Program-made: the position numbers and the translations under genes
Notes under the pieces: model-generated
What the model was told of the DNA's origin: nothing
The model's database searches: none
What the model saw: the letters and a program-made list of their open reading frames with translations, nothing else
Shown here: piece after piece, positions 727-62,952 of the stretch
Position numbering within the stretch: position 1 is the first letter of the stretch
Layout: each line of letters starts with the position of its first letter
NCBI GenBank assembly: GCA_046269625.1
Contig: JBJURY010222185.1
Location: 1-64,000, forward strand
DNA length: 64,000 bases
Direction of reading: 5' to 3'
Source: Hausera hauseri
Taxonomy: Eukaryota

Positions 727-1018
727 GTGTATTCTCCAAGATTGTTTTGACTTCATTCATGTTGTCTTCGTTGATGACGAGGGCGATGCCGCCCGCGCCG
801 TTGATCTTGTCGATGTTGAGCTGCTGCAGTGCCGTGGGCTTGTTGCCGTTGGCTTTGCACTCGAGCCCAAAGAACCGACCTTTGTAGCACACGATGATAT
901 CGGGCACGCCCGACGCACCGCCGAACCCACCCGCCACTGGGTAGAAGTAGTAGGCACCCAGCGCTTTCAGCTGGGCGACCACCTTGTCTTTCACTGCGCG
1001 TTCAGGAGTCTTTGCCAT
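695..1018 (-). CDS. VRR-NUC family nuclease / Holliday junction resolvase-like
   Basis: TPE..VK, GVPDII, LECKA, PTALQ motifs of phage VRR-NUC PD-(D/E)XK proteins. Confidence 0.85.
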   Translation of the reverse strand: MAKTPERAVKDKVVAQLKALGAYYFYPVAGGFGGASGVPDIIVCYKGRFFGLECKANGNKPTALQQLNIDKINGAGGIALVINEDNMNEVKTILENTHGVLEQRSTR

Positions 1019-1467
1019 TGCTTACCCTTTTCAAATGTCCCCCATGTCTTCCAACGCCACCATGCCAACTCCTTGGATATCCCCACATGAGCCGCGCACT
1101 CTACCAAAGTCCCAGTAAACAAGCCGTCGGTATAAACCTTGGTGGACGTTTTGTTTTTCTGTTGTTCACTCTTGGTGGCCCATCGACAGTTGCTCGGCGT
1201 GTAGTCCCCCGCAGAGTCTATACGGTCTAGGCTCGCCCAACTCCCCGGGCGTTTGCCCATGTCTGCTAAAAAGTCCTCAAAGTTTAGCCAGCGGTCGCAT
1301 ACGATAACCCCCTTTCCCCCGTAGTATCTGTACATCTTATGGTTTGGGTTGTTGCACCGGGCCAACATAGAGCGCCAAGTGTAGTGCTCCACGGACTCGA
1401 CGCCCCCACCATAAGCACCGTGCTTAGTGCGCGCGGCCATCCATCGCTCTCTCGTATTGCTATCCAT
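991..1467 (-). CDS. free-standing HNH-type homing endonuclease
   Basis: W.SM..RC.N.N...Y..YGG.G..VC.RW..F..F..DMG..P...SLDRID..G.Y.P.NCRWAT..EQ..N signature; lower GC than flanks. Confidence 0.85.
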   Translation of the reverse strand: MDSNTRERWMAARTKHGAYGGGVESVEHYTWRSMLARCNNPNHKMYRYYGGKGVIVCDRWLNFEDFLADMGKRPGSWASLDRIDSAGDYTPSNCRWATKSEQQKNKTSTKVYTDGLFTGTLVECAAHVGISKELAWWRWKTWGTFEKGKQWQRLLNAQ

Positions 1468-6522: not shown

Positions 6523-7170
6523 TTATTTTACTTTGGGTCCAAGCACCCGCTTACGAGGGGCAACCAACGCTGCCCCTCTAAGTCCTCTTCTCCACCGCGC
6601 ATCTAGCGTGGATGCGGGGAGTCCGTATTTCTCGGACATCTCTGACAGAGACAACTTTTCTCCCCCCACCATATCTGCTCGGGTGCTTCTGCGGTTATTG
6701 AGTTGCACCTTTGAAGAAGTCCACCGGACATTCCCCGGTATATACCCCAACGCGTTGTCTATACGGTCCAAGGACACATCCCTCCCTGTGCCGGGTGCCG
6801 CCCCTATGTGTGCGTAGAAAGCGGGAAAGCTTTTTACCCACTCCTCACACATAGTTATCCCCCTACCCCCATAGTGGTGATACTTTGGGTTGTTTGTGTT
6901 GAAGCATCGCTGCTTTGCAGAAGTCCAAGCCCTCCACTCTTTATGACGTGCTACTCCATGCCTTGCACGGTGCCGGTTACTCTCGGACACTCCGCACGGG
7001 ATAGAGCATGACTTTACGCCCTGTCGAAGGTTACCGCTGGACTTGGCGCAAAGAGTGCCGCAATCGCAGCGGCACTCCCACATTGCTTGCCCATCTGAAC
7101 GTCTGTCCATACGTCGAATAATCAACAACTTGCCTTGCCTAACACCGAGCCAGTCTCTGGGTGCGCCCAT
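6523..7170 (-). CDS. free-standing HNH-type homing endonuclease
   Basis: W.C.CDCG, YGGRGI.MC..W, SLDRIDN..GY.PGNVRW; inserted between the MoxR and VWA genes. Confidence 0.85.
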   Translation of the reverse strand: MGAPRDWLGVRQGKLLIIRRMDRRSDGQAMWECRCDCGTLCAKSSGNLRQGVKSCSIPCGVSESNRHRARHGVARHKEWRAWTSAKQRCFNTNNPKYHHYGGRGITMCEEWVKSFPAFYAHIGAAPGTGRDVSLDRIDNALGYIPGNVRWTSSKVQLNNRRSTRADMVGGEKLSLSEMSEKYGLPASTLDARWRRGLRGAALVAPRKRVLGPKVK

Positions 7171-23171: not shown

Positions 23172-23256
23172 ACCATAAGCGATATAAAGCTAGAGTATTA
23201 TGTTGACCCCACGTCTTTTGTTTTATATCTATACTTTACCAACACAGGAGCTCGCT

Positions 23257-24192
23257 ATGTCCGTCATTTATCAGATCACCAATATGCTTACCGGGGACTT
23301 CTATATCGGTAGCGCGCAGTCATTTGCCCGCCGGGAGTGGCAGCACCGTTACGCTCTCAAGCGCAACGAGCATAAGAACCCCCACATGCAGTCCTCGTGG
23401 AACAAGTATGGGGAGGAGGTATTTGTCTTCGAGGTACTCGAGGAGGTGCCAGATGAAGAAGACGTCCTCGCGGCGGAGAACAAGTACCTCCATAAGCATG
23501 TTGGGCAGCACAACTGCTTCAATGTGAACAAGGACGCTCTTGCCCCGAGGCTCGGGCAGGTCATGACCGCCGAGTCCAAGGCCAAGCTTAGCGAGAGCAG
23601 GAAGGGCAAGGGCGCGGGCGAAGAGCATTACCGGTACGGCCAAGAAGTATCCGCAGAGGTACGTGCCAAGATCAGTGAGACACAAAAAGGCCGCCAGAGC
23701 CCGATGAAGGGCAAGAAGATGTCCGAGCAGGGGCGAGCCAACGTCGCAGCCGCCGTGACGCGCGGCGCAGATTCGCACTTCTATGGGAAGCGCCCAGCGA
23801 GCGCTGACGAATTGCAGAAGGCAATCACGGCGCAGTATTCGGACGGGCGGCAAGAAACTTACCCTAGCTTGACACACATCCGCGATACATTTGGTGTGTC
23901 GCTTATGACGACTATCCGGGCATGCAAGAGCGGAAACCGTGTGGAGCGCGGGGCTTTTGCGGGGGCACTCATGTGGTATGCAGATTCTGAAAAACCCGCT
24001 TTGGCAGATGAACAAGTCCCCGCAGAGTACGCCGATCTTCCGCGCACGCGAACTGAGGCTAAACGTCTTGGGGCTAAGAAGTACTTTACTGGGGAACCGT
24101 GCACGCATGGCCACGTAGCGCCCAGATACACTAAGGGTATGTGCGTAGCCTGCGCGGCAGAGGGGCAAAGAGCTAGGGCTCGTAAGCTCTAG
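23257..24192 (+). CDS. GIY-YIG homing endonuclease with NUMOD3-like repeats
   Basis: VIYQITN....FYIGSA; R...H...L....H.N...Q..WNKYG; ESKAKLSES/EVRAKISE repeats. Confidence 0.85.
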   Translation: MSVIYQITNMLTGDFYIGSAQSFARREWQHRYALKRNEHKNPHMQSSWNKYGEEVFVFEVLEEVPDEEDVLAAENKYLHKHVGQHNCFNVNKDALAPRLGQVMTAESKAKLSESRKGKGAGEEHYRYGQEVSAEVRAKISETQKGRQSPMKGKKMSEQGRANVAAAVTRGADSHFYGKRPASADELQKAITAQYSDGRQETYPSLTHIRDTFGVSLMTTIRACKSGNRVERGAFAGALMWYADSEKPALADEQVPAEYADLPRTRTEAKRLGAKKYFTGEPCTHGHVAPRYTKGMCVACAAEGQRARARKL

Positions 24193-39663: not shown

Positions 39664-40281
39664 ATGCCTACGTTTGTTGACCGTACAGGGGTTCGGTACG
39701 GGAGGCTCACAGCGCTCACAATCGCTGGGAAAACTGCGGCTAAGAAAACCCTGTGGCGCTGCGCCTGCGATTGCGGGAAAGAGGTGCTCGTAGACGCCTG
39801 TAGGCTACAGACAGGGAATACGACCTCGTGCGGGTGCTATCTGAAAGACCGGATAACCAAGCACGGAGGTACAGGGAAAGGCTCATATAACACGTGGCGT
39901 GCAGTGGTGCGCCGGTGCACAAACCCGAACGATAAAGACTACTACCGTTACGGCGGTATGGGGATCACCGTGTGCGCGGAATGGTTGGACTATCCGCGGT
40001 TTAGGGCGGACATGGGGGAGCCCCCGACCGATGGGCATAGTCTTGACCGCATAGACCCTTGCGACGGGTACAGCAAAGCTAACTGCCGCTGGGCAACCGC
40101 CCTTGAGCAGAATCGGAACATACGTAGCTTTGGAAAAGCTCGCGGGGTATCCCTCCGAGGTAATAAATGGTATGCAATTATTGGGGTGAACAACCGACAG
40201 ATATATTCGCGGGGGTTCGACACTAAAGAGGAAGCTATGGCTGAACGGCAGCGGCAAGAACAGCTATATTGGAGCTCGTAA
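39664..40281 (+). CDS. HNH homing endonuclease with C-terminal AP2-like domain
   Basis: WRC.CDCG, YGG.GI.VC.EW, SLDRID...GY...NCRWAT; RGVS....KW.A.I......Y..GFDTKEEA. Confidence 0.85.
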   Translation: MPTFVDRTGVRYGRLTALTIAGKTAAKKTLWRCACDCGKEVLVDACRLQTGNTTSCGCYLKDRITKHGGTGKGSYNTWRAVVRRCTNPNDKDYYRYGGMGITVCAEWLDYPRFRADMGEPPTDGHSLDRIDPCDGYSKANCRWATALEQNRNIRSFGKARGVSLRGNKWYAIIGVNNRQIYSRGFDTKEEAMAERQRQEQLYWSS

Positions 40282-45345: not shown

Positions 45346-48300
45346 ATGGGTGTCATTCAGGTTCCGGGCCGTCTGAGCGGGAAGACCTACAGCGTCAAGA
45401 TCAAGGGCGACACTCCGTCCGAGACTGAGCAGGCACGCATCCGTGCGTATCTGGACGAGCAGGAAGGCGCTTTTGTACAGGACTTCTCGCAGCGCTTTGG
45501 TTTTACGCCCCCCACTCCCGACGACGGCACGGCTCTCGGTCGCGGCTTTGAGCGCGGCAAGGCCGGTGCAAAGTCCCTTCTCGGCACCACTGTGGAAACT
45601 ATCGGCCAGCAGGTCGGCCTGCCCAGCATCGCCGAATATGGCCGGGGTATGGAGGAAGCCGCTGCACAGCGGCAGTTCGAGCTGAGCCTCCTGCAGCCTG
45701 CACCGACGACGCGCCAAGATGTTGCTGCAGCCGAGGGCTTCTTCCCGACTATCGGCGCGGGGCTTACCTATGCTGGTGAACTTGCGGGTGAACAGATTCC
45801 GCAGTTGGGTGTTGGTTTGGCGGGTGGCGCTGCTGGTGCTGTCGTTGGCGGCCTTACGTCGGGACCCGCCGGGGCTCTGGCTGGTTTCGGTATCGGCTCC
45901 GGTCTTACCGAGGCACCTCTGCTGTTCGGTTCCAACGTCCAGCGCCAAGAGGAAGAAGTCGCAGCCGGGCGCAAAGCCTCTGTCGATCTCACTGATGCCC
46001 TCAGCGCTACCGTCGGGCAGGCGGGGCTCACTGCTGTTACCAATGCGCTGGCCGGTGCAGGCGTGTTCGTCCGCCCCGGTGCCAAGCTCTTTACCCGCGC
46101 CCTGTCAGGCGCAGCTGTCGGCGGCACAACGGAATCTTTGAACGAAGTCGGCCAGCAGATGCTGGAGCGCTATCAGGCCGGTCTGCCGATTGATAGCCCC
46201 GAGGCCATCCAAGAATACATCGACGCTGGTGTGGCTGGCGGCGTTCTCGGGTTCGGTGCTGGCGGTCTTGGCGGCGCTATCGGTGGACCGCGTCCTGCAG
46301 AGGCACCCGAGGCACCCGAGGGTGCCGAAGTCCCTGCCCCTGCTCCGGCGGCGGAACCCACTACCACCGCACCGGTGGCCACCCCCGAAGAAGTTGCTGC
46401 AGCTGCACAAGAAGTGACGGCGGAACCTGTTGTCGCCCCGGAACCTGTTGTCGCCCCGGAACCTGTCGTTGCCCCGGAGCCTGTTGCCGCGGCTCCAAAA
46501 CCTGCTGCCCCGGAACCTGTCGCAGCGACGGAGCCTGTTGTCGCCCCGAAGCCTGTCGTTGTCCCGGAGCCTATTGCCCCCGCCCCCGCCCCGACAGTCG
46601 CGGCTGATGATTACTATACTCCTATGGAGACCGAGGAGGAGGCGTTCGAACGGGCGGCGCAAATCTATGCGCCGAAACCTGAGTATCGCGAAGAGGCCGA
46701 GGCTGTCACAGCAAAGCAAGAACAGCTGGCGCTGGAGCTCGCTCCCGAGACGCGCACTGCTGTGCCAGCGGTCAAGCAGGGGCAGCCTGAACAGGTCTTG
46801 ACCGACGACCTCGTGACTCAGCTTGGCGTTCGCCCGGCGAAATCGGCGTCGTTGCGTAAACTGGTAGGGAAACCCCTAACGGACACCAAGGTGATCCGTG
46901 CACTGGACAGTTGGGCCCAGAATGATCGTGCGACTCCTGAAAACAAGGCTATGGCGCGCAGTCTTATCACTGGGCAACCTATGCCGGAGGCCCCGGCTAT
47001 CGCCCCCACGCAGGAGGTCGCAGATGTCCCCGAGATTGCAGCGCCTCAGTCAGAAGAAGTGGGAGCTGGCGCTCCGAGTGGTGGACAAGGCGTGGAAGGA
47101 GGCGGACGGCCCGCTGACGACACTGGAGGCCCCGCCGGGGTTGAAGCACCTACAAGCGGAGGACTGGGAGGAGGTTTGCCGCTGTCTGTGGGTCCTGCAG
47201 CTGCAGAGGGAGAACAACCAGCTGCACTGATTGAAGCACCTAACCTCAGCACACCGGTCGTCCAGCAGCCGACACTCCGGCGTGAACAGGGCATGAATAT
47301 TGTGCAGGCGGGGCAAGTCATTCCTGCCCCCGTGCGGGTGCCGCAGGCACAAACCATGTCGCCCGTGCAGCGTGTCACAGCGCAGCAGTTGGATCAGGCT
47401 CTTGCCACTCGGTACGAGACCTTGACTCCGCCGGACGTCAAGCGCGGTGCGAAGTTCTTGAACGAGCGGGGCGTGCAGGGCACTGTCCCCGATAAGCTGA
47501 CCATTGCCGATAAGCAGGTCGTCATCAATCTGCTGGCTACGCGGGATGATCTCCTGTCGCCGCAGGCCAAGTCCGCGAAACTTTATTTCTCCAAGGTGGC
47601 TCGCCCCATGGAGGCCGTGCTGATGGTCGTTGATGACCTGACCGCACCTTACGGCAAGTATCGCGCTGAACCCGGCACCGACCCCTACACCCGTGCGTTC
47701 CTGTCCCAGACCGGTACCGTAGCAGCCAAGCAGGCGCTCGAGTTCATCAAGACCCGTATGTCCAAGGAATTGAACAGCGAGGTTACGTTCCGGCAGGACC
47801 TGAGCGCGCAGCAAAACGCGAATATCGAGACATGGGTCAGTGATCTCGACCGGGTCGAACTCAAGCGGGCCGAACGGCTCCGCGAGAGGGAAGCACGCTT
47901 CGAGGCCGCAAAAGAATCTGGCTATGTCGACGAGACGCAGATCAACTCCATGACTGCGAAGAACCCGCTGGCGGCGCTCGACAAGCCCATGCACTACGCG
48001 GTGAAGGCTGCACTCGACGCGGGCGATCTGCGCGGGGCACTCCGTGCCGTGGCTACGACGACGAACAACGCGGAACTTGCGGCGCTTGCAAACAAGTTCG
48101 CCGACCTCGCCGGAACCACCCGGGTGCGGACGCTCTACGAGGGCGACTCCGCTAAATACATTGGCCGAGACCGTGCCGTGTTCGTGCAGCAGGCGGAAGG
48201 CGTTGATCCTGAGTATGAGAACATCATTCTCATCAACGGCTATACCGGGATGACCACCCACGTGTTTATGCACGAGATGGCGCATGTGGTGACGAGCCGA

Positions 48301-51300
48301 CTCCTCAACACGCAGCCTAACCACCCGGTGACTAAGCAGCTGGCACAGCTCCTCTCGAGCCTGCGGGACGCTGCACCGCCGAATATCACCTACAAGGAAG
48401 GCGACTTCTACGGGCTCTCCAGCGTCAGTGAGATGGTGGCGGAGGCTTTCGGGCGTCTCACTCTTGGCGAAAACGACAATGGCCTGCGTGACCTGATGAA
48501 GCGCACGGCTTATACCAAGTACACCCCTGTCACGAAAGAGCTGCCCCTGACCAACTGGGAGCGGTTCAAGGAGGTTGTCGGCAATTTCATGCGTGGGCTG
48601 ATCGGTCTCCCGGCGAAGCCGTACCCGCGCCGCACAGTGAAGTCGACTATCGAGTCGCAAGAGAGCGGGCTGGACCGGTTCCACCGACTGATCGACGGCC
48701 TGCTGTCCGAGGCACCGCAGGTGCTTCCCGACTACGTGTTCGACAAAACGCTAATTAGCCCCATGACGGCTAGGACGGTGCTTAACAACGCCATCCAGAA
48801 CGCCCCTACGTGGGACAAAGCGGGTATGAACCGCCTCTCTAATCAGATGCAGGCGTCCATTCCTAATCCGCTGCGCCGCACGTTGTTGGGCTTGCTGCAC
48901 CTCGACTGGTTCAACGACCTCGCTGGGAAATATTTCCCGCAGATTGCGGAACTCAAGCGCCTCGACGACGAGCGCCGTGGCGAAATCATTCGCATGGCGG
49001 ACAAAGCGAAGCCAGTTCTCGAAGACCTGCAGACGTATTCGGAAAAGCAGCCCGCGCTGTTCTCGCAGCTGATGGCCATCATGGGCCGTGCGACCATCGA
49101 AGAAGTCGATCCGACCAAACCTGTGTCCGCATATGGTGCAGACCAAGACAAGGTGAAGATTTGGCACGATCTTAACCGCGAAATGACCTCGGCGGACTCG
49201 ACGGGGGAACTGCGCACCCTGTTTAAGAAGGTCCGCAACATGTATCAGGGCTACCGCGACGAGATCGCGAACGTCCTGCGTGAGCGGGTCAAGGAGATTT
49301 CAGAAGACGTTGCAACGCAGAACCAACTGTTTGCACGCCTGATGGCAAAGATGGATGAAGAGGGCGTTATTGACCCCTACTTCGCCCTGATGCGTAAAGG
49401 GGACTTCTGGCTGTCTTACACCGCCGAGGATACCACTGCAGACCCTGTGTCGCTCGACCCCGAAACCGGGCTTTCCCAGCGCCCCGTCACCAAATTCGTG
49501 CAGACCTTCGAGTCCGCATGGGAGCGGCAGCAGTTCCTTGACAAGCTGCGTGCGACTAAGGACGCGCAGGGTAACGACGTGGCATGGGACTACGAGGAAT
49601 ACATGCGCCCCCTCGCGTTCAACGCGGGGCAAATGGTGCCTAGCTCCTTCGTGCAGGGCGCGATCAACATCATCAACACCACGGTGCCGGAGACCAAGGA
49701 CGCTGCAGCGAAAGAGCGCGCGGATGCGGCTATCAGCGCCATCCAAGACATGTTCGTGCGGTTCACCCCCGAGCACTCGCTGATGAAGTCCTTCACCAAA
49801 CGTAAGGGCACCCGGGGTTTTGTCGGCGATATCACGCCGCTCGGTGTCGTAGACCGTCCGGTAGACATGGTGCAGTTGCTGGCGGAGAAGTCGTCCGGGC
49901 TTGCCTACCAGCTCTCGAACATGAAGTACGGGGCTAAAATTCAGAAGCTCCGTAACGATGCACAGACCCAGTACAAGACGCTCAATGCTTCTCCCGCACT
50001 CACCGCCGGGGAAAAAGTAGCGGTGCTGGCCTACCTCGAAGAGTTCGACGACCGCGCCAAGTTTGCTCAGAGCCCGCATGTTAGCCAAGCCGCGCAGCTG
50101 ACGCGCGGGGTTACGTTCGGTATGACGCTCGGGTTTAGCATCGCCGGTACGGCTAACAACCTCATGCAAATCCCCATGATCGGTACGACCGAACTCGGCG
50201 GGCGCTATGGTATGGCTGGGGCCATTCGGGAACTCGGGTCAGCTGCACGGCTCCTGATGAACGCGGGCAAGACCCACAAGGTCCGTTCTTACGGTGCCGA
50301 CGGCATGGAGACCCGCGAGCTGTCCGGGGTCGACAACTTCGGCTCGATGGCCAACTACTTTGAGGTAGACGACGCCGGTAGATACACGCTGCGCACGGAC
50401 AAAAAGATTCCGGCTAAGTTGCGGAGCAAAATCGGCGATCTGGATGCGCTCGTTGAAGTGATGTCCGCTAATGGCATGCTCGCCAACTCTATGGCGCAGG
50501 AGATGCTCGAGGCAGACGCAGGGTGGCTGCAGAAGATTAACCGCTGGTCCGGTTTCCTGATGCACCACGCCGAACGCTTTAACCGGCAGGTTATGGCCAT
50601 CGCTGCCTACAACCTCGAACTCGGCAAGGCCAAGGCCGGTGGAGGCTCGCTCGACTACGAGACGAAACTCGCCGCCGCAAAGAAGGCCGTCGAGATCACT
50701 GAACGTGTGAACGGCAGCATCGGTGCCTCCACTGCACCGCGCTGGGCTCAAGGTCCCATCGGCTCTATCGTGTTCATGTTTAAGCGGTTCGGTCTGCATA
50801 TGGCCCGCTACATCATCGGCACGGCCGATCAAACCATCCGCGGTATGTCGAAAGAAGATCGGGCGGTCGCGCGCTATCAGATCATCGGCATGCTGGGCAC
50901 CACAGCGCTCTTTGCGGGCGTGCAGGGTCTCCCGTTCTTCGGGGAACTCATGTCGATCTTCAACCTGCTCTTTACCGAGGACGACGAGGAACCGGCAGAA
51001 GTCGTCATCCAGAAGTTCCTTGGCGAACCCTACTACAACGGTGCGATCAACTACCTGACCGGTGCCGAAGTCGCCTCGCGTATCTCGATGAGCGGTCTGA
51101 TCTTCCGTGAGAACCGCATCGAGAAGGACCAGAGCATCGCCTACGACATCTTCGAGTCGCTCGGTGGTCCGGCTGTTGGCGTGTTCATGAACGTGGAGCG
51201 TGGTATGGAGCTGCTCTCGCAGGGCGAACTGTATCGCGGCGTCGAAGCCATGATGCCCTCGGCGGTCAAGAGCGTGATGAAGTCCGTCCGGTTCGGCACC

Positions 51301-51723
51301 GAGGGTGCCACCACCCTGCGGGGCAACGAGATCGTGCCGGTGTCTAACTGGGACCTTGCCCTGCAGGCGGTCGGCTACACGCCCGGTGCCTATGCACGGC
51401 AGCAAGAGCGCGTCTCTGGAGAGAAGCGTATCGACAAGGCTATCGTGTCGGAGCGTCGGTCGCTGCTTCTCAAGTACAACATGGCTTTCGCCGAAGGCGA
51501 CTTCGAGACGGTGCGTGAAGTGCTCAAGGATATGTTCGAGTTCAGCAAGAAGCACCCGGAGGCGGCTATCACCGCGGACACTCTGGAGCGGTCTGGGCGG
51601 AGCTTCTCGCAGCGGACGTCGGAGATGATTGGGGGTGTGACCTTCACGCCGTCCTACCTACCCCGTGCACAGAAGTCGATCAGCGAGTACGACCAAGACA
51701 TCTCGTTCTGGGGGTCGGAATAA
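45346..51723 (+). CDS. large (2125 aa) internal virion / polyvalent-type protein with zincin-like HExxH
   Basis: last late gene; G-rich hydrophobic N-terminus, EPVVAP repeats, FMHEMAH...EMVAE, helical C-terminus. Confidence 0.75.
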   Translation: MGVIQVPGRLSGKTYSVKIKGDTPSETEQARIRAYLDEQEGAFVQDFSQRFGFTPPTPDDGTALGRGFERGKAGAKSLLGTTVETIGQQVGLPSIAEYGRGMEEAAAQRQFELSLLQPAPTTRQDVAAAEGFFPTIGAGLTYAGELAGEQIPQLGVGLAGGAAGAVVGGLTSGPAGALAGFGIGSGLTEAPLLFGSNVQRQEEEVAAGRKASVDLTDALSATVGQAGLTAVTNALAGAGVFVRPGAKLFTRALSGAAVGGTTESLNEVGQQMLERYQAGLPIDSPEAIQEYIDAGVAGGVLGFGAGGLGGAIGGPRPAEAPEAPEGAEVPAPAPAAEPTTTAPVATPEEVAAAAQEVTAEPVVAPEPVVAPEPVVAPEPVAAAPKPAAPEPVAATEPVVAPKPVVVPEPIAPAPAPTVAADDYYTPMETEEEAFERAAQIYAPKPEYREEAEAVTAKQEQLALELAPETRTAVPAVKQGQPEQVLTDDLVTQLGVRPAKSASLRKLVGKPLTDTKVIRALDSWAQNDRATPENKAMARSLITGQPMPEAPAIAPTQEVADVPEIAAPQSEEVGAGAPSGGQGVEGGGRPADDTGGPAGVEAPTSGGLGGGLPLSVGPAAAEGEQPAALIEAPNLSTPVVQQPTLRREQGMNIVQAGQVIPAPVRVPQAQTMSPVQRVTAQQLDQALATRYETLTPPDVKRGAKFLNERGVQGTVPDKLTIADKQVVINLLATRDDLLSPQAKSAKLYFSKVARPMEAVLMVVDDLTAPYGKYRAEPGTDPYTRAFLSQTGTVAAKQALEFIKTRMSKELNSEVTFRQDLSAQQNANIETWVSDLDRVELKRAERLREREARFEAAKESGYVDETQINSMTAKNPLAALDKPMHYAVKAALDAGDLRGALRAVATTTNNAELAALANKFADLAGTTRVRTLYEGDSAKYIGRDRAVFVQQAEGVDPEYENIILINGYTGMTTHVFMHEMAHVVTSRLLNTQPNHPVTKQLAQLLSSLRDAAPPNITYKEGDFYGLSSVSEMVAEAFGRLTLGENDNGLRDLMKRTAYTKYTPVTKELPLTNWERFKEVVGNFMRGLIGLPAKPYPRRTVKSTIESQESGLDRFHRLIDGLLSEAPQVLPDYVFDKTLISPMTARTVLNNAIQNAPTWDKAGMNRLSNQMQASIPNPLRRTLLGLLHLDWFNDLAGKYFPQIAELKRLDDERRGEIIRMADKAKPVLEDLQTYSEKQPALFSQLMAIMGRATIEEVDPTKPVSAYGADQDKVKIWHDLNREMTSADSTGELRTLFKKVRNMYQGYRDEIANVLRERVKEISEDVATQNQLFARLMAKMDEEGVIDPYFALMRKGDFWLSYTAEDTTADPVSLDPETGLSQRPVTKFVQTFESAWERQQFLDKLRATKDAQGNDVAWDYEEYMRPLAFNAGQMVPSSFVQGAINIINTTVPETKDAAAKERADAAISAIQDMFVRFTPEHSLMKSFTKRKGTRGFVGDITPLGVVDRPVDMVQLLAEKSSGLAYQLSNMKYGAKIQKLRNDAQTQYKTLNASPALTAGEKVAVLAYLEEFDDRAKFAQSPHVSQAAQLTRGVTFGMTLGFSIAGTANNLMQIPMIGTTELGGRYGMAGAIRELGSAARLLMNAGKTHKVRSYGADGMETRELSGVDNFGSMANYFEVDDAGRYTLRTDKKIPAKLRSKIGDLDALVEVMSANGMLANSMAQEMLEADAGWLQKINRWSGFLMHHAERFNRQVMAIAAYNLELGKAKAGGGSLDYETKLAAAKKAVEITERVNGSIGASTAPRWAQGPIGSIVFMFKRFGLHMARYIIGTADQTIRGMSKEDRAVARYQIIGMLGTTALFAGVQGLPFFGELMSIFNLLFTEDDEEPAEVVIQKFLGEPYYNGAINYLTGAEVASRISMSGLIFRENRIEKDQSIAYDIFESLGGPAVGVFMNVERGMELLSQGELYRGVEAMMPSAVKSVMKSVRFGTEGATTLRGNEIVPVSNWDLALQAVGYTPGAYARQQERVSGEKRIDKAIVSERRSLLLKYNMAFAEGDFETVREVLKDMFEFSKKHPEAAITADTLERSGRSFSQRTSEMIGGVTFTPSYLPRAQKSISEYDQDISFWGSE
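46423..46580 (+). repeat. 18-bp coding repeats (EPVVAP)
   Basis: GAACCTGTTGTCGCCCCG units. Confidence 0.75.
47024..47230 (+). CDS. small gene overprinted (+1 frame) inside the large virion protein
   Basis: AGGAGG 6 nt before the ATG; 68-aa helical product; host frame there is a G/P/A/E linker. Confidence 0.5.
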   Translation: MSPRLQRLSQKKWELALRVVDKAWKEADGPLTTLEAPPGLKHLQAEDWEEVCRCLWVLQLQRENNQLH

Positions 51724-56566: not shown

Positions 56567-58981
56567 CTAGTCAAGCAATTCCTTATACAGGTCGACGACC
56601 TTGGTATGCACGTCGATCTTCTCGTCGAGCAGCTTGTAGACCCGGCGCTCCACGCCAGAGCCCTGCAGCTGGACCACGGTGCACTTATTGACCTGCCCCT
56701 TGCGGTGCACCCGGGCGTTAGCCTGTGCGTAGGTCTCGAGCGAGGATGTCGGTGCCCACCAGACCACCGTGTTGGCCGCCGTTAGGGTCACGCCGTGCGC
56801 CGCAGCCTGCGGCTGGATGACCAGCACCCGAGGATCGGGCTGCTCTTGGAACTGCTTGAAGATCGAGGTCCTCGCTCCGGCGCTCACCTCGCCGCTGATG
56901 ACGGCGTTAGTAATACCGTCCTTGGCCAGCTGCTCCGACAGCATATTGATGACGTGCTTGAACGGTACGAACACCAGCACCTTGTGGGTGCTTTCGGCGA
57001 TGACCTCTTTGAGAACGCTGTAGCGGTTGCCGATGTCGAACTGCACCGTGTCGCCGGATTCGGTATAGCTTGCGCCCGCTGAGATTTGCAGGAGCTTGCC
57101 CATCATCACAGCCGCGTTGACCGCGGTGATCTGCTCACCGGCCACTTCCATGACCATCTGGTTCTTGAGGCGCTTGTAGTAGAGCTCTTGCTGCTTCGTC
57201 AGCGCGACGTCCCGCTTGACGTAGACCATGTCCGGCAGGTCGAGGCACTCGTCCTTGGTGTAGCGGATGGCAGGCTGCAGGGCGCTATGCACGGTGCGCT
57301 CGGAGTTCTCCTTGGGCTTCCAGCGATACTGGGAGACCTTATACATCACCATGTCTTTCCAAGCGTTGAAGAACTTGGGCACGCCCGCCGGGTTGACCAG
57401 CTTTGCCAAGCCGTAGGCGTCCTCGGGCCCTTGAGCCGCAGGGGTGCCGGTCATCATCCAGAGCCACATGTCGGGCTTCACCAACGAGTTCAGCACCTTC
57501 CAGCGCTTGCTCTGGGCGTTCTTGTAGTGGCTGCAGTTGTGCACTAGGTGGGCGTTTTCCCCAACAAAATAGTTAGGCGTTCCACTAACTTCGAGGTTAT
57601 AGACGTATTCGTCACATCTCGGTTCGCGATACGTAACACTGTCCACCCGAGCTCCGAAAGTTTTTCCATTTTCCGCCGATCCCGCTCCTGACCTTTCGTC
57701 GTGCGGTGGCTGTTTCCATCCACTTCCAACCCAAGTTTCTTCTCCGGCCACGCGAAGTCGAGCTTGTAGTTCGTAGGATAGCCGGGCTGCCTCTTTCCCA
57801 ACGCTACTGGGAAGTTCCATATCCAACCAACCGGAAGCTGCGACGACACCAATACCTCCGCCGCTGTTAGGCCCGTACCGTTCCCACCCCGAACCACTGG
57901 ACGAATCCCCTTCGCTTTCGCCACATCCGATAGATGCGCACGCTGCTCCGACGTCCGGTGAAACCCAGCGCGAACCCCTTTCGCCCTCTGCTCTTGCGTC
58001 AAGGATTTCAGTGCTGACTGACCCGGATGCAGGAGGTGCCATCTCTTCCGAGCGCAGGATCGAGAGCAAGACGTCCCCGTGCTCGACTGATGTTTCCGAT
58101 GAAACCGCCACTTCCGCATTATCACGGTGTACTGCGTTCCGCATATCGGACAAGCCAGCAAAACTGACAAGTCGTCTACCCGCAATAGCTCTGGCGGGAA
58201 CCCAACCCCAGTCAGTGAAGAAAGGATGTTCTGGAGTGCAGGTGATAATTTCTCCGGTTTCAAGTTTCACCTCCACCAGCCTGTTAGGCTTCCGCTTGGA
58301 CACCGTTTTTATATTACGTACCCCGTCACTTGCAAACACAGTGTCTCCGAGGGCCAAAGTTTCTATGGCCACCGGCCCGTTGGGGGTGTGCACGGGGGTG
58401 CCTGCGACAAAGCACTCGTCAACGATGATGAGGTCGTAGCCCGCAGCGGCGATATCATCCCGTACGATCTCTACACCGTCGTAGTTGATAATGAGGAACT
58501 CGGGCTTCCCGGCGATGATCTTCCGGCGCTTGTCGGCGGTGCCGTGAGCGATACCCACCGTGCGGTGCATGGCGAAGGTGAACAGGTCTGCATGCCACGC
58601 ACTGTCCATGATCGAGAGCGGGCAGATGACCATGGCACGCTTGATGATGCCCTGCTTCATGAGGAAGTCCGCAGCCCAGATCGCGCTGGCCGTCTTGCCG
58701 GTCCCGGCTTCGTTGAAGCAGAACGCCTTCTGGTTCATGGTCAGGAAGGACGCCGTCGTGCGCTGATGCGCCATCGGAGCGAACTTACCCGTCCAGTTGT
58801 AGCGGCCCTCGATGGGCGACGGCACCTTGATATTCAGCCCCCGCAGGGTGTGCGTCTCGGGCACGCCCCAGTTCACGATGACCTCGTGCTCGCTGATCGC
58901 CTTGCTCTTCGGGATGACCGTAGTGACTTGTTTTGGATTGCGTAGCTTGAGAAGCAACGCTTTACCGTCGATGATCTGCAT
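56567..58981 (-). CDS. SNF2-family helicase, intein-containing
   Basis: GTGKT, INYDG, IVDE|CSH, MTGTP, HGVTLT, QANARVHR.GQ. Confidence 0.92.
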   Translation of the reverse strand: MQIIDGKALLLKLRNPKQVTTVIPKSKAISEHEVIVNWGVPETHTLRGLNIKVPSPIEGRYNWTGKFAPMAHQRTTASFLTMNQKAFCFNEAGTGKTASAIWAADFLMKQGIIKRAMVICPLSIMDSAWHADLFTFAMHRTVGIAHGTADKRRKIIAGKPEFLIINYDGVEIVRDDIAAAGYDLIIVDECFVAGTPVHTPNGPVAIETLALGDTVFASDGVRNIKTVSKRKPNRLVEVKLETGEIITCTPEHPFFTDWGWVPARAIAGRRLVSFAGLSDMRNAVHRDNAEVAVSSETSVEHGDVLLSILRSEEMAPPASGSVSTEILDARAEGERGSRWVSPDVGAACASIGCGESEGDSSSGSGWERYGPNSGGGIGVVAASGWLDMELPSSVGKEAARLSYELQARLRVAGEETWVGSGWKQPPHDERSGAGSAENGKTFGARVDSVTYREPRCDEYVYNLEVSGTPNYFVGENAHLVHNCSHYKNAQSKRWKVLNSLVKPDMWLWMMTGTPAAQGPEDAYGLAKLVNPAGVPKFFNAWKDMVMYKVSQYRWKPKENSERTVHSALQPAIRYTKDECLDLPDMVYVKRDVALTKQQELYYKRLKNQMVMEVAGEQITAVNAAVMMGKLLQISAGASYTESGDTVQFDIGNRYSVLKEVIAESTHKVLVFVPFKHVINMLSEQLAKDGITNAVISGEVSAGARTSIFKQFQEQPDPRVLVIQPQAAAHGVTLTAANTVVWWAPTSSLETYAQANARVHRKGQVNKCTVVQLQGSGVERRVYKLLDEKIDVHTKVVDLYKELLD
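57536..58414 (-). mobile_element. intein in helicase motif II (293 aa)
   Basis: DE|CFVAGTPV block A, TPEHPF block B, VYNLEV..TPNYFV...LVHN|C. Confidence 0.93.
57544..58263 (-). CDS. Vsr/DUF559-like PD-(D/E)XK endonuclease overprinted in the helicase intein
   Basis: CPIC...CSRSC, then YKLDFAW...KLGLEVDG.SH...D..K...L...GWTVLRI; GGAGG 6 nt before the TTG. Confidence 0.8.
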   Translation of the reverse strand: MKPEKLSPALQNILSSLTGVGFPPELLRVDDLSVLLACPICGTQYTVIMRKWRFHRKHQSSTGTSCSRSCARKRWHLLHPGQSALKSLTQEQRAKGVRAGFHRTSEQRAHLSDVAKAKGIRPVVRGGNGTGLTAAEVLVSSQLPVGWIWNFPVALGKRQPGYPTNYKLDFAWPEKKLGLEVDGNSHRTTKGQERDRRKMEKLSELGWTVLRIANRDVTNTSITSKLVERLTILLGKTPT

Positions 58982-59621: not shown

Positions 59622-60289
59622 TTCCCACCCCCATGGTGTGCGCATTGCGTAACCGGACAGTGCTTTCGGCACAGTCCTGACGGTCGCGGGTTCCATACGT
59701 TGGTCTCGTGTGCCTTTTCCAAGGCGGCGTATTTCATCACCCACGGCTTCCACAGCACACCCTCGTCAGTCACCGAGTAGTCCTGCTTCACGATGTCGTT
59801 GGCGATGGTGAAGAGCAACGCGCCCTTCACCTTCTTGACCTGCGGGAAGTGCTTGAAGATGGCCAGCGCCATAACCTGCAGCTGCCCAACGTCGGCATAC
59901 TTCGCGCTCTTGCCAGTCTTGTAGTCCACGTAGCGGGCGGTGTCTCCGTTCACGATGACGAGGTCGCCGATGCCGCGGAACCACACGTCCTTATCGAAGA
60001 AGCCACACGGCTCCAGATCAGCGGTGAGGCCCATCTTGAGTTCGCAGTGCTTCTCCCCCGGCATAGCCGCAAGCCGTTCCATAGTGGCCTGCATGAACGA
60101 GAACTGCGGGGGCATGGGTTTGCCGTCGCGGATGAACTCCTCGCACGCCGTATGAAAGGACTTCCCGTATAGGGTTGCCTCGGTGTCCTTAAAGGGAAAC
60201 TCATTCAGCACGGTGACGTGGTAGAACTGCTTCGGACACTTTTCGAAGTTACTGATCTTGCTGAACGACCATGCACCGGCTCCACTCAT
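59618..60289 (-). CDS. Cas4/RecB-like PD-(D/E)XK exonuclease
   Basis: WSFS....FEKCP, G..FH, D.....DYKTGK, QL, C..HCP...C. Confidence 0.85.
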   Translation of the reverse strand: MSGAGAWSFSKISNFEKCPKQFYHVTVLNEFPFKDTEATLYGKSFHTACEEFIRDGKPMPPQFSFMQATMERLAAMPGEKHCELKMGLTADLEPCGFFDKDVWFRGIGDLVIVNGDTARYVDYKTGKSAKYADVGQLQVMALAIFKHFPQVKKVKGALLFTIANDIVKQDYSVTDEGVLWKPWVMKYAALEKAHETNVWNPRPSGLCRKHCPVTQCAHHGGGK

Positions 60290-62952
60290 TACGTCTCTCC
60301 ATAGTTCTTGCCGATTCCGGCTTCACAGTCGACGGGAAGGCCCTCGGCCCACGCGGGGACCCAGCGCATACACTCTTCGACGTAGGACTTGCACGCTTCG
60401 GCGTCGTTGTCAGGAACACAGCATACGATGCTGTCATGCACAGTCAACACAACTCTGTATTTTTTACTAATTCGCAGCATTTGCTCGCCGATGATAAGTC
60501 TCGCCAGCGCCTGCGTTACGTTCTCGACCACCTTCCCGCCGTAGATACGGGTGCGTCCTATGCGGGTTTTGTAGGAATACTCGATGCCGCCCTTCTCGTT
60601 CTCGGCCTCTTCCAGCTCGTCGTAGCGGATCAGCAGGCCGTTGGGCAGCACGATGCCGGGAGCGCGGGTATCCACGCTGAGAACACCGTCCTTACCGAAG
60701 GGCATAGCGTCACCCCGCACCATGTATCGCAGCATGATACCGGCCTGCTTCCACATGCCCGAGATCATGTCGTTGGTCTCACGGTAGATGCCGATGATCT
60801 TGGCCGCCTCGTTCTTGGAGATGTCCACGCCGGAGTTCTTGAGGGCCAGCTGGAACTTCTCACCGCCCATGCCATAGCCGCAATTATGAACGATAAGCGG
60901 CCCCGCAGCAGTCGCAACTGTGTATCTGTTCCTCGGCCCGGCGAAGGCGATGTCGTAGGTCATCAATCTCTGCCTGTAGGTCTGCGACGCGGCGCTTGTT
61001 TCTCGCGTTCTCAGACTTTGTGGCGAAGCGGAGGTTCCCCGGCGCATACCCTTTTTCGTTGTCGATTCGGTCAAGGTCCCGCGCGGGGTCGTCCCAGCCC
61101 TCCAACGTGAGCAAATATCGAAGAAACGCTGCGCGGTCCGCACGCCATACCGCGTATACTTGGATGCCACGCCCCCCGTAGTGTGAGTATATTGCACAGG
61201 TTGGGGTATGGCAGCGCGATATACAGGACCCAATGCGGTTGAGCAGGCGCTTTCGATGAGCGTCGTCGGGTAACACACTGCGGTACTTGAGCCATCGCTT
61301 ACTGTTACTAGCTTGCTTGGCGCAAGCATTGCAGCGTGTTGTGCGCCCAGCCTTGAGGTTAGCGCGGTCCACCATGCCCTCCCACCCGCAAGAGCAGCGG
61401 ACGACAGGGTGCCAGCCGGAACCAGATTTTTGTTGCCAATCCCGGACCTCGAGCTCGCCGAACGTAGCGCCGACTGGAAAAGGGAAGGGCTTGTAATTAC
61501 CTCGAACCACCCCCGCCACCCACGTTCCGTTAGAATTTCGTGGTCCGGTGTTGCGGCGACCCCCGAGAACCGGACCGTCTCCTTCACCCCTTGCGGCACT
61601 ACACCCTTGTGCGTTACCCATTCCTCACCATCCCATACCATATCCGTAACTGTAATATTTACGATAGGAACCCAACCACGTGGCGTCAACACTTTTGTAT
61701 CCGCAGCGAAGCAACCGAGTACCGTGGTCTTACCCACGAACCGCTGGTCCTTGGTCACGTCGCTCTCGGCTACACCATAGATCGCTGAGGCCATCTTCTT
61801 GTAGACGTCGCCCTTGGACGCAAAGGTCTGCACCACGTCGTCCTGCCCAGCCAGCCACGCAAGCATGCGTGCTTCGATCTGTGACGAGTCGGACTCGACG
61901 ATGCTGTAGCCCTCGGGCGCGATGATGCACTTCTTGAGCGCCTTGGCGTTAGGCCCCCGACTAGGGAGGTTCTGCAGGTTGATCTTGTCGTCACCGCCCC
62001 AGCGGCCTGTGTGAGCCGCGTAGTAGCGCACCGGGACAGGCAGCTTGCCCCGCCCAGCGATGTCGATGAACCGCTGTGTGCGGGTCTCCTCGAGCGTAGA
62101 CTTCACCCCGAGCCGTGCGGCAGCCAGCGCCTGCACCTGCGGGTCGTCATCTTCCAGCAGGTCCTTCATGCCCTGATCGCTCTTAGCCAGTGCGTAGGTC
62201 ATGTTGCCCGTGGTGGGGCTGATCTTCATGGGGCAGGGCACCCCGAACTTACCGAGCAGTGCGGCAAACTTCGGGTTCGACATGAGGTCGGCCTTGTCCT
62301 CGACGCCAGCAGACTTGAGCAGGTCTTCCTTCATCATCTGCGTCTTACTGAGGTGCTCCTCGAGCCGCTCCCGGTCCAGCTCCAACGTAGGCTCAGTGAA
62401 CATACGCAGGGTCAGGTCGATCAGCTTGAGCTCCGACTTCGGGAACCCCCGAGACAGCATGATGTTGAAGATGTCGTAGGTCAGGTCTACGTCATTGACA
62501 CAGTAGCGCCCGTAGGCCGACAGCTCTTCCGGCGTGAAGTCGTTGCGGCGTTTCCCCTTGGCGTCCAGCACCTCGGTGCCTTTCTCCCCTACCCCGTAGT
62601 TTTCGGCGAGAGCCTTGAGGCTGGCACTCTTCTCGACGCCGTGGATCGCACGAGCCATGCAGAGCGTATCGAACAGCACCTTCGGACGGATGCCGAACCG
62701 CCAAGACATGATCGCACCATCGAACATCATGTTGTGCGCCAGCACCGCAGAGTTGGCCCAGTCGTATGATGCCAGTGCTTGCTTGATCGCACCGTGCGTC
62801 CCGGTGATCCACGCAGTCTCGCCGTCGTTGACCTTCACCCCCACCCCAATGACTTGGAAGCGAGGGTCACGGATATATTCTTCCGTGGTGATCTTAGACA
62901 GCGAGTAGTCTTTGTCGTAGTAGGTCTCCGTGTCTATAGTAATTACGTCCAT
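60289..62952 (-). CDS. polA: family A DNA polymerase, intein-containing
   Basis: DTET exonuclease, HN..FD, HTGRW, NLQN, DSSQIEAR, GK..VLG|CGYG, TVHDS. Confidence 0.95.
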   Translation of the reverse strand: MDVITIDTETYYDKDYSLSKITTEEYIRDPRFQVIGVGVKVNDGETAWITGTHGAIKQALASYDWANSAVLAHNMMFDGAIMSWRFGIRPKVLFDTLCMARAIHGVEKSASLKALAENYGVGEKGTEVLDAKGKRRNDFTPEELSAYGRYCVNDVDLTYDIFNIMLSRGFPKSELKLIDLTLRMFTEPTLELDRERLEEHLSKTQMMKEDLLKSAGVEDKADLMSNPKFAALLGKFGVPCPMKISPTTGNMTYALAKSDQGMKDLLEDDDPQVQALAAARLGVKSTLEETRTQRFIDIAGRGKLPVPVRYYAAHTGRWGGDDKINLQNLPSRGPNAKALKKCIIAPEGYSIVESDSSQIEARMLAWLAGQDDVVQTFASKGDVYKKMASAIYGVAESDVTKDQRFVGKTTVLGCFAADTKVLTPRGWVPIVNITVTDMVWDGEEWVTHKGVVPQGVKETVRFSGVAATPDHEILTERGWRGWFEVITSPSLFQSALRSASSRSGIGNKNLVPAGTLSSAALAGGRAWWTALTSRLGAQHAAMLAPSKLVTVSDGSSTAVCYPTTLIESACSTALGPVYRAAIPQPVQYTHTTGGVASKYTRYGVRTAQRFFDICSRWRAGTTPRGTLTESTTKKGMRRGTSASPQSLRTRETSAASQTYRQRLMTYDIAFAGPRNRYTVATAAGPLIVHNCGYGMGGEKFQLALKNSGVDISKNEAAKIIGIYRETNDMISGMWKQAGIMLRYMVRGDAMPFGKDGVLSVDTRAPGIVLPNGLLIRYDELEEAENEKGGIEYSYKTRIGRTRIYGGKVVENVTQALARLIIGEQMLRISKKYRVVLTVHDSIVCCVPDNDAEACKSYVEECMRWVPAWAEGLPVDCEAGIGKNYGET
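60883..61713 (-). mobile_element. intein in PolA motif B (277 aa)
   Basis: LG|CFAADTKV block A, TPDHEI block B, TYDI...NRYTV.....IVHN|C. Confidence 0.92.
60884..61621 (-). CDS. HNH-type endonuclease overprinted in the PolA intein (start uncertain)
   Basis: CSCG...C..C, RC.......YGGRGI, LDRIDN.KGY.PGNLRFAT.SEN..N. Confidence 0.82.
   Translation of the reverse strand: MGNAQGCSAARGEGDGPVLGGRRNTGPRNSNGTWVAGVVRGNYKPFPFPVGATFGELEVRDWQQKSGSGWHPVVRCSCGWEGMVDRANLKAGRTTRCNACAKQASNSKRWLKYRSVLPDDAHRKRLLNRIGSCISRCHTPTCAIYSHYGGRGIQVYAVWRADRAAFLRYLLTLEGWDDPARDLDRIDNEKGYAPGNLRFATKSENARNKRRVADLQAEIDDLRHRLRRAEEQIHSCDCCGAAYRS

Follow-up and report, generated by a model that had tools for sequence, protein, structure and literature searches.

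A nuclease gene overprinted on a PolA intein in a probable homing element of phage polA

The first 64,000 nucleotides of contig JBJURY010222185.1, part of an assembly deposited for Hausera hauseri (GCA_046269625.1) and hereafter called the window, contain a gene for a family A DNA polymerase (PolA) that is interrupted at motif B by an intein. A second open reading frame (ORF), which encodes a nuclease, is overprinted on the intein in another frame of the same strand. We consider it likely that the two form an 834-nt homing element, with a separately expressed nuclease whose ancestor was a free-standing gene, captured long ago and elsewhere, and that the element homed into this polA recently. 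The intein has the class 1 hallmarks (Cys1, the block B His, the terminal His-Asn pair, and a Cys at +1), and residues C1, T55, D57, and H58 were invariant among 16 of its relatives. Its match to the Hint fold was weak (Pfam Hint_2, E 0.057), and a single-sequence structure model, with a mean predicted local distance difference test score (pLDDT) of 33, was uninformative and therefore says nothing about the fold. From these motifs and the purifying selection described below, we infer that the intein splices itself out of the polymerase.

We estimated the ratio of nonsynonymous to synonymous divergence (pN/pS) for each frame from 15 non-overlapping sequence pairs. The nested nuclease consists of an overlap tail, an N-terminal beta/Cys domain, a putative PacI-type beta-beta-alpha-metal core, and a C-terminal helix, and over its two domains the nuclease-frame pN/pS was 0.24 and 0.17. 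The host frame there, the middle of the intein, is a stop-free linker without constraint (pN/pS ~1.5). At the ends of the intein the host-frame values were 0.20–0.30 and those of the nuclease frame 1.2–1.4, such that constraint switched frame at the domain borders. Both frames are used, and the nuclease frame is under purifying selection. The arrangement, a host frame that stays open across a second, selected nuclease ORF on the same strand, is that of the inteins described by Gosselin et al. (2025, 10.1101/2025.01.02.630785).

The nuclease frame has its own promoter-like site and start codon, both kept in synonymous codons of the intein. A single promoter-like site was detected, spanning 61689-61661, compared with 0.2 expected. 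The codon that supplies its −35 box, Leu9, was TTG in 77 of 109 thinned sequences of the clade described below, compared with 207 of 1601 Leu codons of the exteins, and in just 2 of 19 sequences of a clade with the nuclease in the +1 frame, whose intein carries the same Leu there. Across the thinned sequences, the promoter score peaked at this position (8.7; mean 3.6, standard deviation 0.8). The start position of the nuclease held a start codon in 164 of 169 scored inteins (105 ATG, 48 GTG, and 11 TTG), although the Glu-Trp codons of the intein yield a start automatically. The base before the Trp codon, which makes the start an ATG, was A at 22 of 30 four-fold sites, compared with a background of 12%; neither this count nor that for Leu9 is independent of descent. 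No hairpin was detected over the start site (z 0.48). Instead of initiating on its own, the nuclease might be made by −1 ribosomal frameshifting out of the polymerase frame, which lies on the same strand, and in some relatives the nuclease frame is indeed open upstream of the intein. In the window, however, a TGA stands two codons upstream of the ATG, and this stop, together with the promoter signal and the recurrence of start codons (subject to the Glu-Trp caveat), makes frameshifting very unlikely.

At the other end of the ORF, translation of the window bore out the claim of the initial annotation that the stop codon falls within the terminal CAT-AAT of the intein. The position of the stop is variable among 172 related inteins: it lies at CAT-AAT in 60, earlier in 109 (mostly 22–49 nt before CAT-AAT), and later in 3. 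The terminal His of the intein was encoded by CAT in 60 of the 61 cases in which the nuclease ORF reaches it, compared with 47 of the 106 in which the ORF stops earlier, a bias that hints at selection for the nuclease to end inside the element.

Table 1. Features of the PolA locus and of the related nuclease genes in the window
Feature	Position	Strand	Description and basis
Family A DNA polymerase precursor	60289..62952	-	887 aa, single open frame; Pfam DNA_pol_A + DNA_pol_A_exo1, translation
Intein	60883..61713	-	277 aa, at motif B (O helix); Cys1, TPDH block, YDI...HN end; LG|CFAAD...IVHN|CGYG
+1 Cys codon	60880..60882	-	Moves with the element; Ala in intein-free alleles
Overprinted nuclease gene	60884..61621	-	245 aa, same strand as PolA, -1 frame
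Nuclease TAA stop	60884..60886	-	Within the intein His-Asn codons CAT-AAT
Shine-Dalgarno-like GGTGA + ATG	61619..61629	-	GGTGA holds the in-frame TGA; ATG made by intein Glu-Trp codons; read from sequence
Putative sigma-70-like promoter	61661..61689	-	TTGACG-17-TATCGT in intein block A codons; -10 box ends 40 nt before nuclease ATG
Putative active site	61007..61072	-	D184-R185-x6-Y192...N196...N205; Arg for His, Tyr in loop; alignment and structure model
Free-standing family member, core only	991..1467	-	Judged distant, not donor; PHROG match, alignment, trees
Free-standing family member with C-terminal helix-turn-helix (HTH)	6523..7170	-	Judged distant, not donor; Pfam, PHROG, trees
Free-standing family member	39664..40281	+	Judged distant, not donor; PHROG match, alignment, trees

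We compared the 80 polA N-exteins closest to that of the window. Of these, 79 were scorable, and every one was empty at the site and had Ala at +1, the nearest being 95% identical in amino acid sequence. Contigs from three of four sequencing runs, which came from separate studies, skipped 834 nt, corresponding to the intein and the +1 Cys codon, and had an Ala codon instead; one intein-free contig had 19 differences in 899 nt (~98% nucleotide identity). The source metagenome held only the intein-bearing copy of the window. Thus, the element is patchily present among near-identical polA alleles, and empty alleles that are ~98% identical indicate that the 834-nt unit arrived recently and complete, with its own +1 Cys. 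In addition, five of the six close relatives of the nuclease (62–66% identical) sit in exteins that are merely 45–68% identical. The element is probably mobile.

The nested protein had 118 close relatives (E<=3e-31, 40–66% identity), followed by a gap to E 2e-10. A long host frame was present at the same offset at all 85 loci of the first relatives (80 in viral contigs and 5 in GenBank phages), and wider searches raised the −1 frame class to 260 loci, of which 247 had a contiguous intein and the rest were cut off or broken. The 176 distinct nuclease cores of these loci formed one clade, supported at 99/99 and 100/99 and set off by a long stem (0.66–0.96), and no member of known context was free-standing. 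Counted from the motif-B lysine, the inteins are inserted at +2, +3, or +6. Inteins of the +2 and +6 positions were intermixed in the intein tree, in which starred branches force at least four changes; the resolution of that tree is poor, and long branches lead to its outgroups. The clade includes the inteins of Jerseyviruses, among them that of Salmonella phage Ent1 (HE775250), annotated only as 'encoding splicing domains'. A literature search, which had most subscription journals outside its scope, found no paper on a hidden gene in Jerseyvirus or on the clade.

For a sample that was unbiased with respect to the nuclease, we picked 80 inteins by their N-terminal splicing domain alone. Sixty-one were contiguous with a −1-frame nuclease, 13 were contiguous with a +1-frame nuclease at another polA site, one was split, one was a mini-intein, and four were cut off. 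Not one of the 76 complete inteins carried its nuclease in frame. The initial annotation had reasoned that a nested protein clustering only with in-frame intein nucleases would imply a recent double frameshift rather than capture, and the sample gives no sign of this; the absence of in-frame forms makes ancient capture of a free-standing gene plausible. The single mini-intein (L540), a form that the annotation had suggested looking for, still carries the two ends of the nuclease ORF; it arose by deletion and does not represent an ancestral, empty state.

Two proteins speak for the double frameshift, by which an in-frame intein nuclease slipped out of frame through compensating indels. One, P0223, falls within the clade and is a fusion of a PolA intein and the nuclease in a single frame; the other, P0130, falls outside it and joins an N-terminal intein half to a related nuclease without a change of frame, terminating at a stop codon. 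P0223, however, is a single derived-looking fragment, and the nuclease has its own conserved promoter-like site and start. The locus of P0130 was not found in viral contigs. A search of longer proteins, a weak test because only 8000 candidates were scored, returned 11 matches, and no complete PolA bearing a nuclease intein in frame was among them. Moreover, an in-frame ancestor would not be expected to select for ~200 stop-free codons in a second frame. Given also the lack of in-frame forms among the 76 complete inteins, we regard a double frameshift as very unlikely. As a separate observation, P0129 is an in-frame fusion of a nuclease to a Hint-bearing protein that, by eye, resembles a head-morphogenesis protein.

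The nuclease itself had been labeled HNH. Its match to that family held up, but it is not HNH in the strict sense, since Arg replaces the catalytic His and is followed, seven residues later, by an invariant Tyr. The pattern D-R-x6-Y was present in 176 of 176, 51 of 51, and 76 of 76 distinct cores and D-H in none of the 303 cores with a locus, although the patterns used for sampling favor this motif to some extent. A structure model of the nested nuclease (pLDDT 80) placed PacI (3m7k) first among 48,161 chains, although with a Z score of only 5.2 and a root-mean-square deviation of 3.3 over 86 aligned residues. PacI, of His-Me finger group 20 (PMC5714182), likewise lacks the catalytic His and has a Tyr in the loop, which it uses instead of the His (PMC5714182, PMC3384342); unlike the nested protein, it is a stand-alone restriction enzyme, and the two have no sequence-level match. 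A sequence search of the PDB returned, among nucleases, only the I-HmuI entry 1u3e (E 0.35) and no match to PacI, and Pfam assigned the nested protein to no family, hence with no match to endonuclease VII. The protein did match phrog_374 (E 9e-28), and a profile built from it and 36 relatives matched 156,517 clusters at 50% identity (E<=0.001), or 111,063 at 1e-10. With more than 150,000 clusters in the family, it is unremarkable for a phage with many homing nucleases to carry three further members, and their co-occurrence means little.

Those three members are the window genes at 991-1467, 6523-7170, and 39664-40281. The initial annotation was right that they share a family with the nested ORF: all four proteins match PHROG 374, 3377, 2081, and 8790, and all four have the motifs YGG.G, LDRID, Y, and N.R[W/F] (18 invariant columns). 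The cores of the three genes contain 3–5 stops in the equivalent second frame, and no Rfam family or intron was found in the window, so the three genes are free-standing. A local capture, in which the intein acquired its nuclease from such a gene in this genome or in a closely related one, would fit the common family profile and the richness of the genome in such genes, and in approximately unbiased (AU) tests a sister relationship between the clade and 991-1467 was never rejected (p=0.07, 0.11, and 0.12). However, the nested protein is only 26, 27, and 30% identical to the products of the three genes, compared with 40–75% to its nested relatives, and two of the three genes, those that were measured, have 4–8 stops per ~180 codons in the frame that would need to be open. 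The AU test rejected both a clade of the nested protein with all three (p=0.0002) and a clade of the whole nested group with all three (p=0.004), and the element arrived recently as a whole. On these grounds, local capture is extremely unlikely. DNA similarity between the nested gene and the three genes did not exceed chance (best blastn E 0.45, for one gene).

By tree distance, the three genes ranked 98th, 99th, and 168th of the 173 rows outside the clade in a 296-row tree, although 6523-7170 was among the nearer outgroups in one smaller tree. In our best tree, of 43 rows and 165 columns under a mixture model, the smallest starred group around the clade (97/89) contained two other PolA-intein lineages and the free-standing genes L094 and L117, which are the nearest outside relatives of known context, and none of the three genes of the window. 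Two of the AU tests were run under a simpler model, and the 90-row tree was a quick version. None of the three genes was the sister of the nested protein in phylogenies of the four proteins with their homologues, a check that the annotation had called for, and on this sequence evidence they are distant cousins rather than donors. Thus, the earlier idea that a free-standing gene was captured is plausible, whereas the idea that this genome displays the origin is not borne out; the capture was plausibly ancient and elsewhere. Beside these results, we noted by eye that 991-1467 (−) and 39664-40281 (+) have TTGAC hexamers ~50 nt before their ATG, resembling the putative promoter of the nested gene.

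Two related lineages also combine PolA inteins with nucleases of this family. In the first, found in Firmicutes prophages and in Streptococcus Javan and Gardnerella phages, the nuclease occupies the +1 frame and the insertion site is unchanged. Sisterhood of the −1- and +1-frame clades, as obtained with FastTree, was not rejected in IQ-TREE (A+B, p=0.47-0.48). The +1-frame clade nests among nucleases that lie between the halves of split inteins at a third polA site (L057 and L125; 98/97 and 98/95). The other lineage, at the YGGK...EN site, includes P45/P46 of phage APSE-1, and its 80 loci comprise 75 contiguous inteins (74 scored and one identified by eye), four split inteins, and one free-standing gene of the APSE-1 type, which lies directly downstream of an intein-free polA (L574, ~1490-2150). 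At the split loci (L563 1500-2460, L573, L588, and L620), the C-terminal half begins with an ATG overlapping the stop codon of the nuclease; the in-frame halves are separated by 4, 5, and 22 stops, and one locus is off frame. In the 43-row tree, the split forms fell in two places among the contiguous ones. Further observations concern the sites themselves: the PolA gene of L057 (1020-2050 and downstream) combines a contiguous intein at motif B with a split one that is accompanied by a nuclease gene, the PolA gene of L210 (524-2110) has two overprinted inteins of this family, and among L572-L651 the exact position of the second polA site varies by a few codons (K|C, KL|CEN, EN|C, and ENF|C), just as that of the motif-B site does.

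These lineages suggest a variant of the capture explanation, in which the nuclease gene broke up the intein first and a fusion of the two halves across that gene followed, in one frame or the other. The nesting of the +1-frame clade among split-intein nucleases and the mixture of forms at the YGGK...EN site fit such a route, as do the two split loci with only 4–5 stops left to lose. None of 64 free-standing genes was stop-free over ~190 codons in the needed frame (1 of 64 was in the other frame), and one-step capture would therefore be rare. Against the route, the clade of the window contains no clear split locus (three loci with halves in different ORFs were not inspected individually), the split forms are placed twice among contiguous ones, and splitting takes one stop and one ATG, whereas fusion requires the loss of every stop. 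The splits may thus be derived, as Gosselin et al. expect. The lineages together fit the capture of free-standing genes on one occasion or on several, and a single origin of all PolA-intein nuclease lineages was not rejected (AU p=0.11). On balance, we hold a passage through split inteins to be a serious possibility that falls short of probable.

Our preferred explanation is that the 834-nt unit, the intein together with its +1 Cys codon, is a homing element with a division of labor between frames. Read in the polymerase frame, it would yield an intein that splices itself out of PolA; read in the −1 frame, it would yield a homing endonuclease, made as a separate protein from a promoter and an ATG built into the intein codons. 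The endonuclease would cut intein-free polA near motif B, and repair would bring in the intein and, with it, the replacement of Ala by Cys that splicing requires. By descent, the nuclease would be a free-standing gene of the huge PacI-type family, one that became associated with this type of intein long ago and in a different lineage of phages, and the copy in the window would have homed in recently, ready-made, as part of an old and widespread element. The two frames, the selection on each, the clade structure, the empty alleles, and the codon bias are observed directly, and splicing, transcription, cleavage, homing, and free-standing ancestry are proposed from them.

Several observations weigh against this explanation. 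The sixth close relative of the nuclease, L007, also sits in a close extein (83/92%), which fits some vertical descent. The clade contains 59 further proteins without known context, among them two in-frame fusions, P0223 and P0191, the latter joining the nuclease to the N-terminal part of an SNF2 protein, and the Leu and Trp-codon counts may in part reflect shared descent. The structural match to PacI is weak, and Foldseek returned nothing for the nuclease model at E<=0.001. Deep branches are weak, the trees resting on 93–165 columns, and in addition to the sister relationship with 991-1467 that survived every AU test, those with 6523-7170 (p=0.009 in one test and 0.07 in another) and with 39664-40281 (p=0.27 and 0.019) gave mixed results.

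The capture model is already published (Gosselin et al., 2025, 10.1101/2025.01.02.630785; Dassa et al., 2009, PMC2677866). The actinobacteriophage inteins of Gosselin et al., which carry an endonuclease VII-like gene in frame 3, resemble that of the window in being contiguous, in having a nuclease that is read from the same strand but in a different frame, and in the proposed invasion by a free-standing gene. They differ in nuclease family and in host polymerase, which is DnaE rather than PolA, and they are treated as rare, whereas here a large clade shows selection, a promoter signal, and empty alleles. The fractured genes of Dassa et al. share the invasion of an intein by a free-standing nuclease gene, and their layout is that of L057, L125, L563, L573, L588, and L620; the intein of the window is instead contiguous, and the Dassa nucleases are GIY-YIG and Vsr-like, with re-fusion putting the nuclease in frame. 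APSE-1, whose P45 contains the nested P46, annotated as 'HNH endonuclease' (NC_000935), combines the same intein and nuclease families out of frame in PolA, but at the YGGK...EN region, in the +1 frame, and with a separate nuclease lineage that retains the C-terminal HTH of free-standing genes; loss of the APSE polymerase intein has been reported, with no mention of the nuclease in the accessible part of that paper (PMC7313666). The Ent1 intein belongs to the same clade and has the same frame and motif B four codons upstream, but its nested gene is unannotated and its site is K.|C rather than LG|C. Finally, the ShiLan element (Arsenault et al., 2025, PMC11855218) has an out-of-frame HNH gene in an insert that is open in the host frame, with the stop in the last bases of the insert (TAAC), although its host is a methylase and it is without a splicing domain.

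Elsewhere in the window, a terminase intein (14976-15887, +) is overprinted in the −1 frame by an ORF at 15212-15796 (+) that encodes an endonuclease VII (Pfam Endonuclease_7, E 3e-18), with its ATG likewise formed by Glu-Trp codons, and an SNF2 helicase intein (57536-58414, −) is overprinted in the +1 frame by an ORF at 57544-58263 (−) for a DUF559/Vsr-like nuclease. All three inteins found in the window are thus overprinted, each by a different nuclease family. A free-standing GIY-YIG/NUMOD3 nuclease gene lies just after the capsid gene (23200-24192, +), and 45346-51723 (+) encodes a 2125-aa protein with an LPD39 domain.

What is new here is the finding that free-standing, split-intein, and overprinted forms coexist among related lineages. 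We tentatively propose, as an idea less likely than not to hold as a whole, that a single intein family and a single PacI-type nuclease family have come together repeatedly in phage polA, at three or more regions and in both alternative frames, that their living relatives display the series from free-standing through split to contiguous forms, that overprinted inteins arise when split inteins fuse across the nuclease gene, that the promoter of the nuclease is encoded within intein codons, and that a +1 Cys of its own would let the element settle at several positions of one helix. The fusion step is absent from the published models, as set out in the accessible parts of those papers. The local free-standing genes, first read as showing the origin of the nested nuclease, become cousins rather than donors, and a published hypothesis on how inteins gain nucleases becomes testable: because the clade includes cultured Jerseyviruses, expression, cutting, and homing could be assayed with laboratory strains. 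Split inteins that occur naturally in PolA could also serve protein engineering, and the results point to a very large family of His-less nucleases that may cut by means of a tyrosine.

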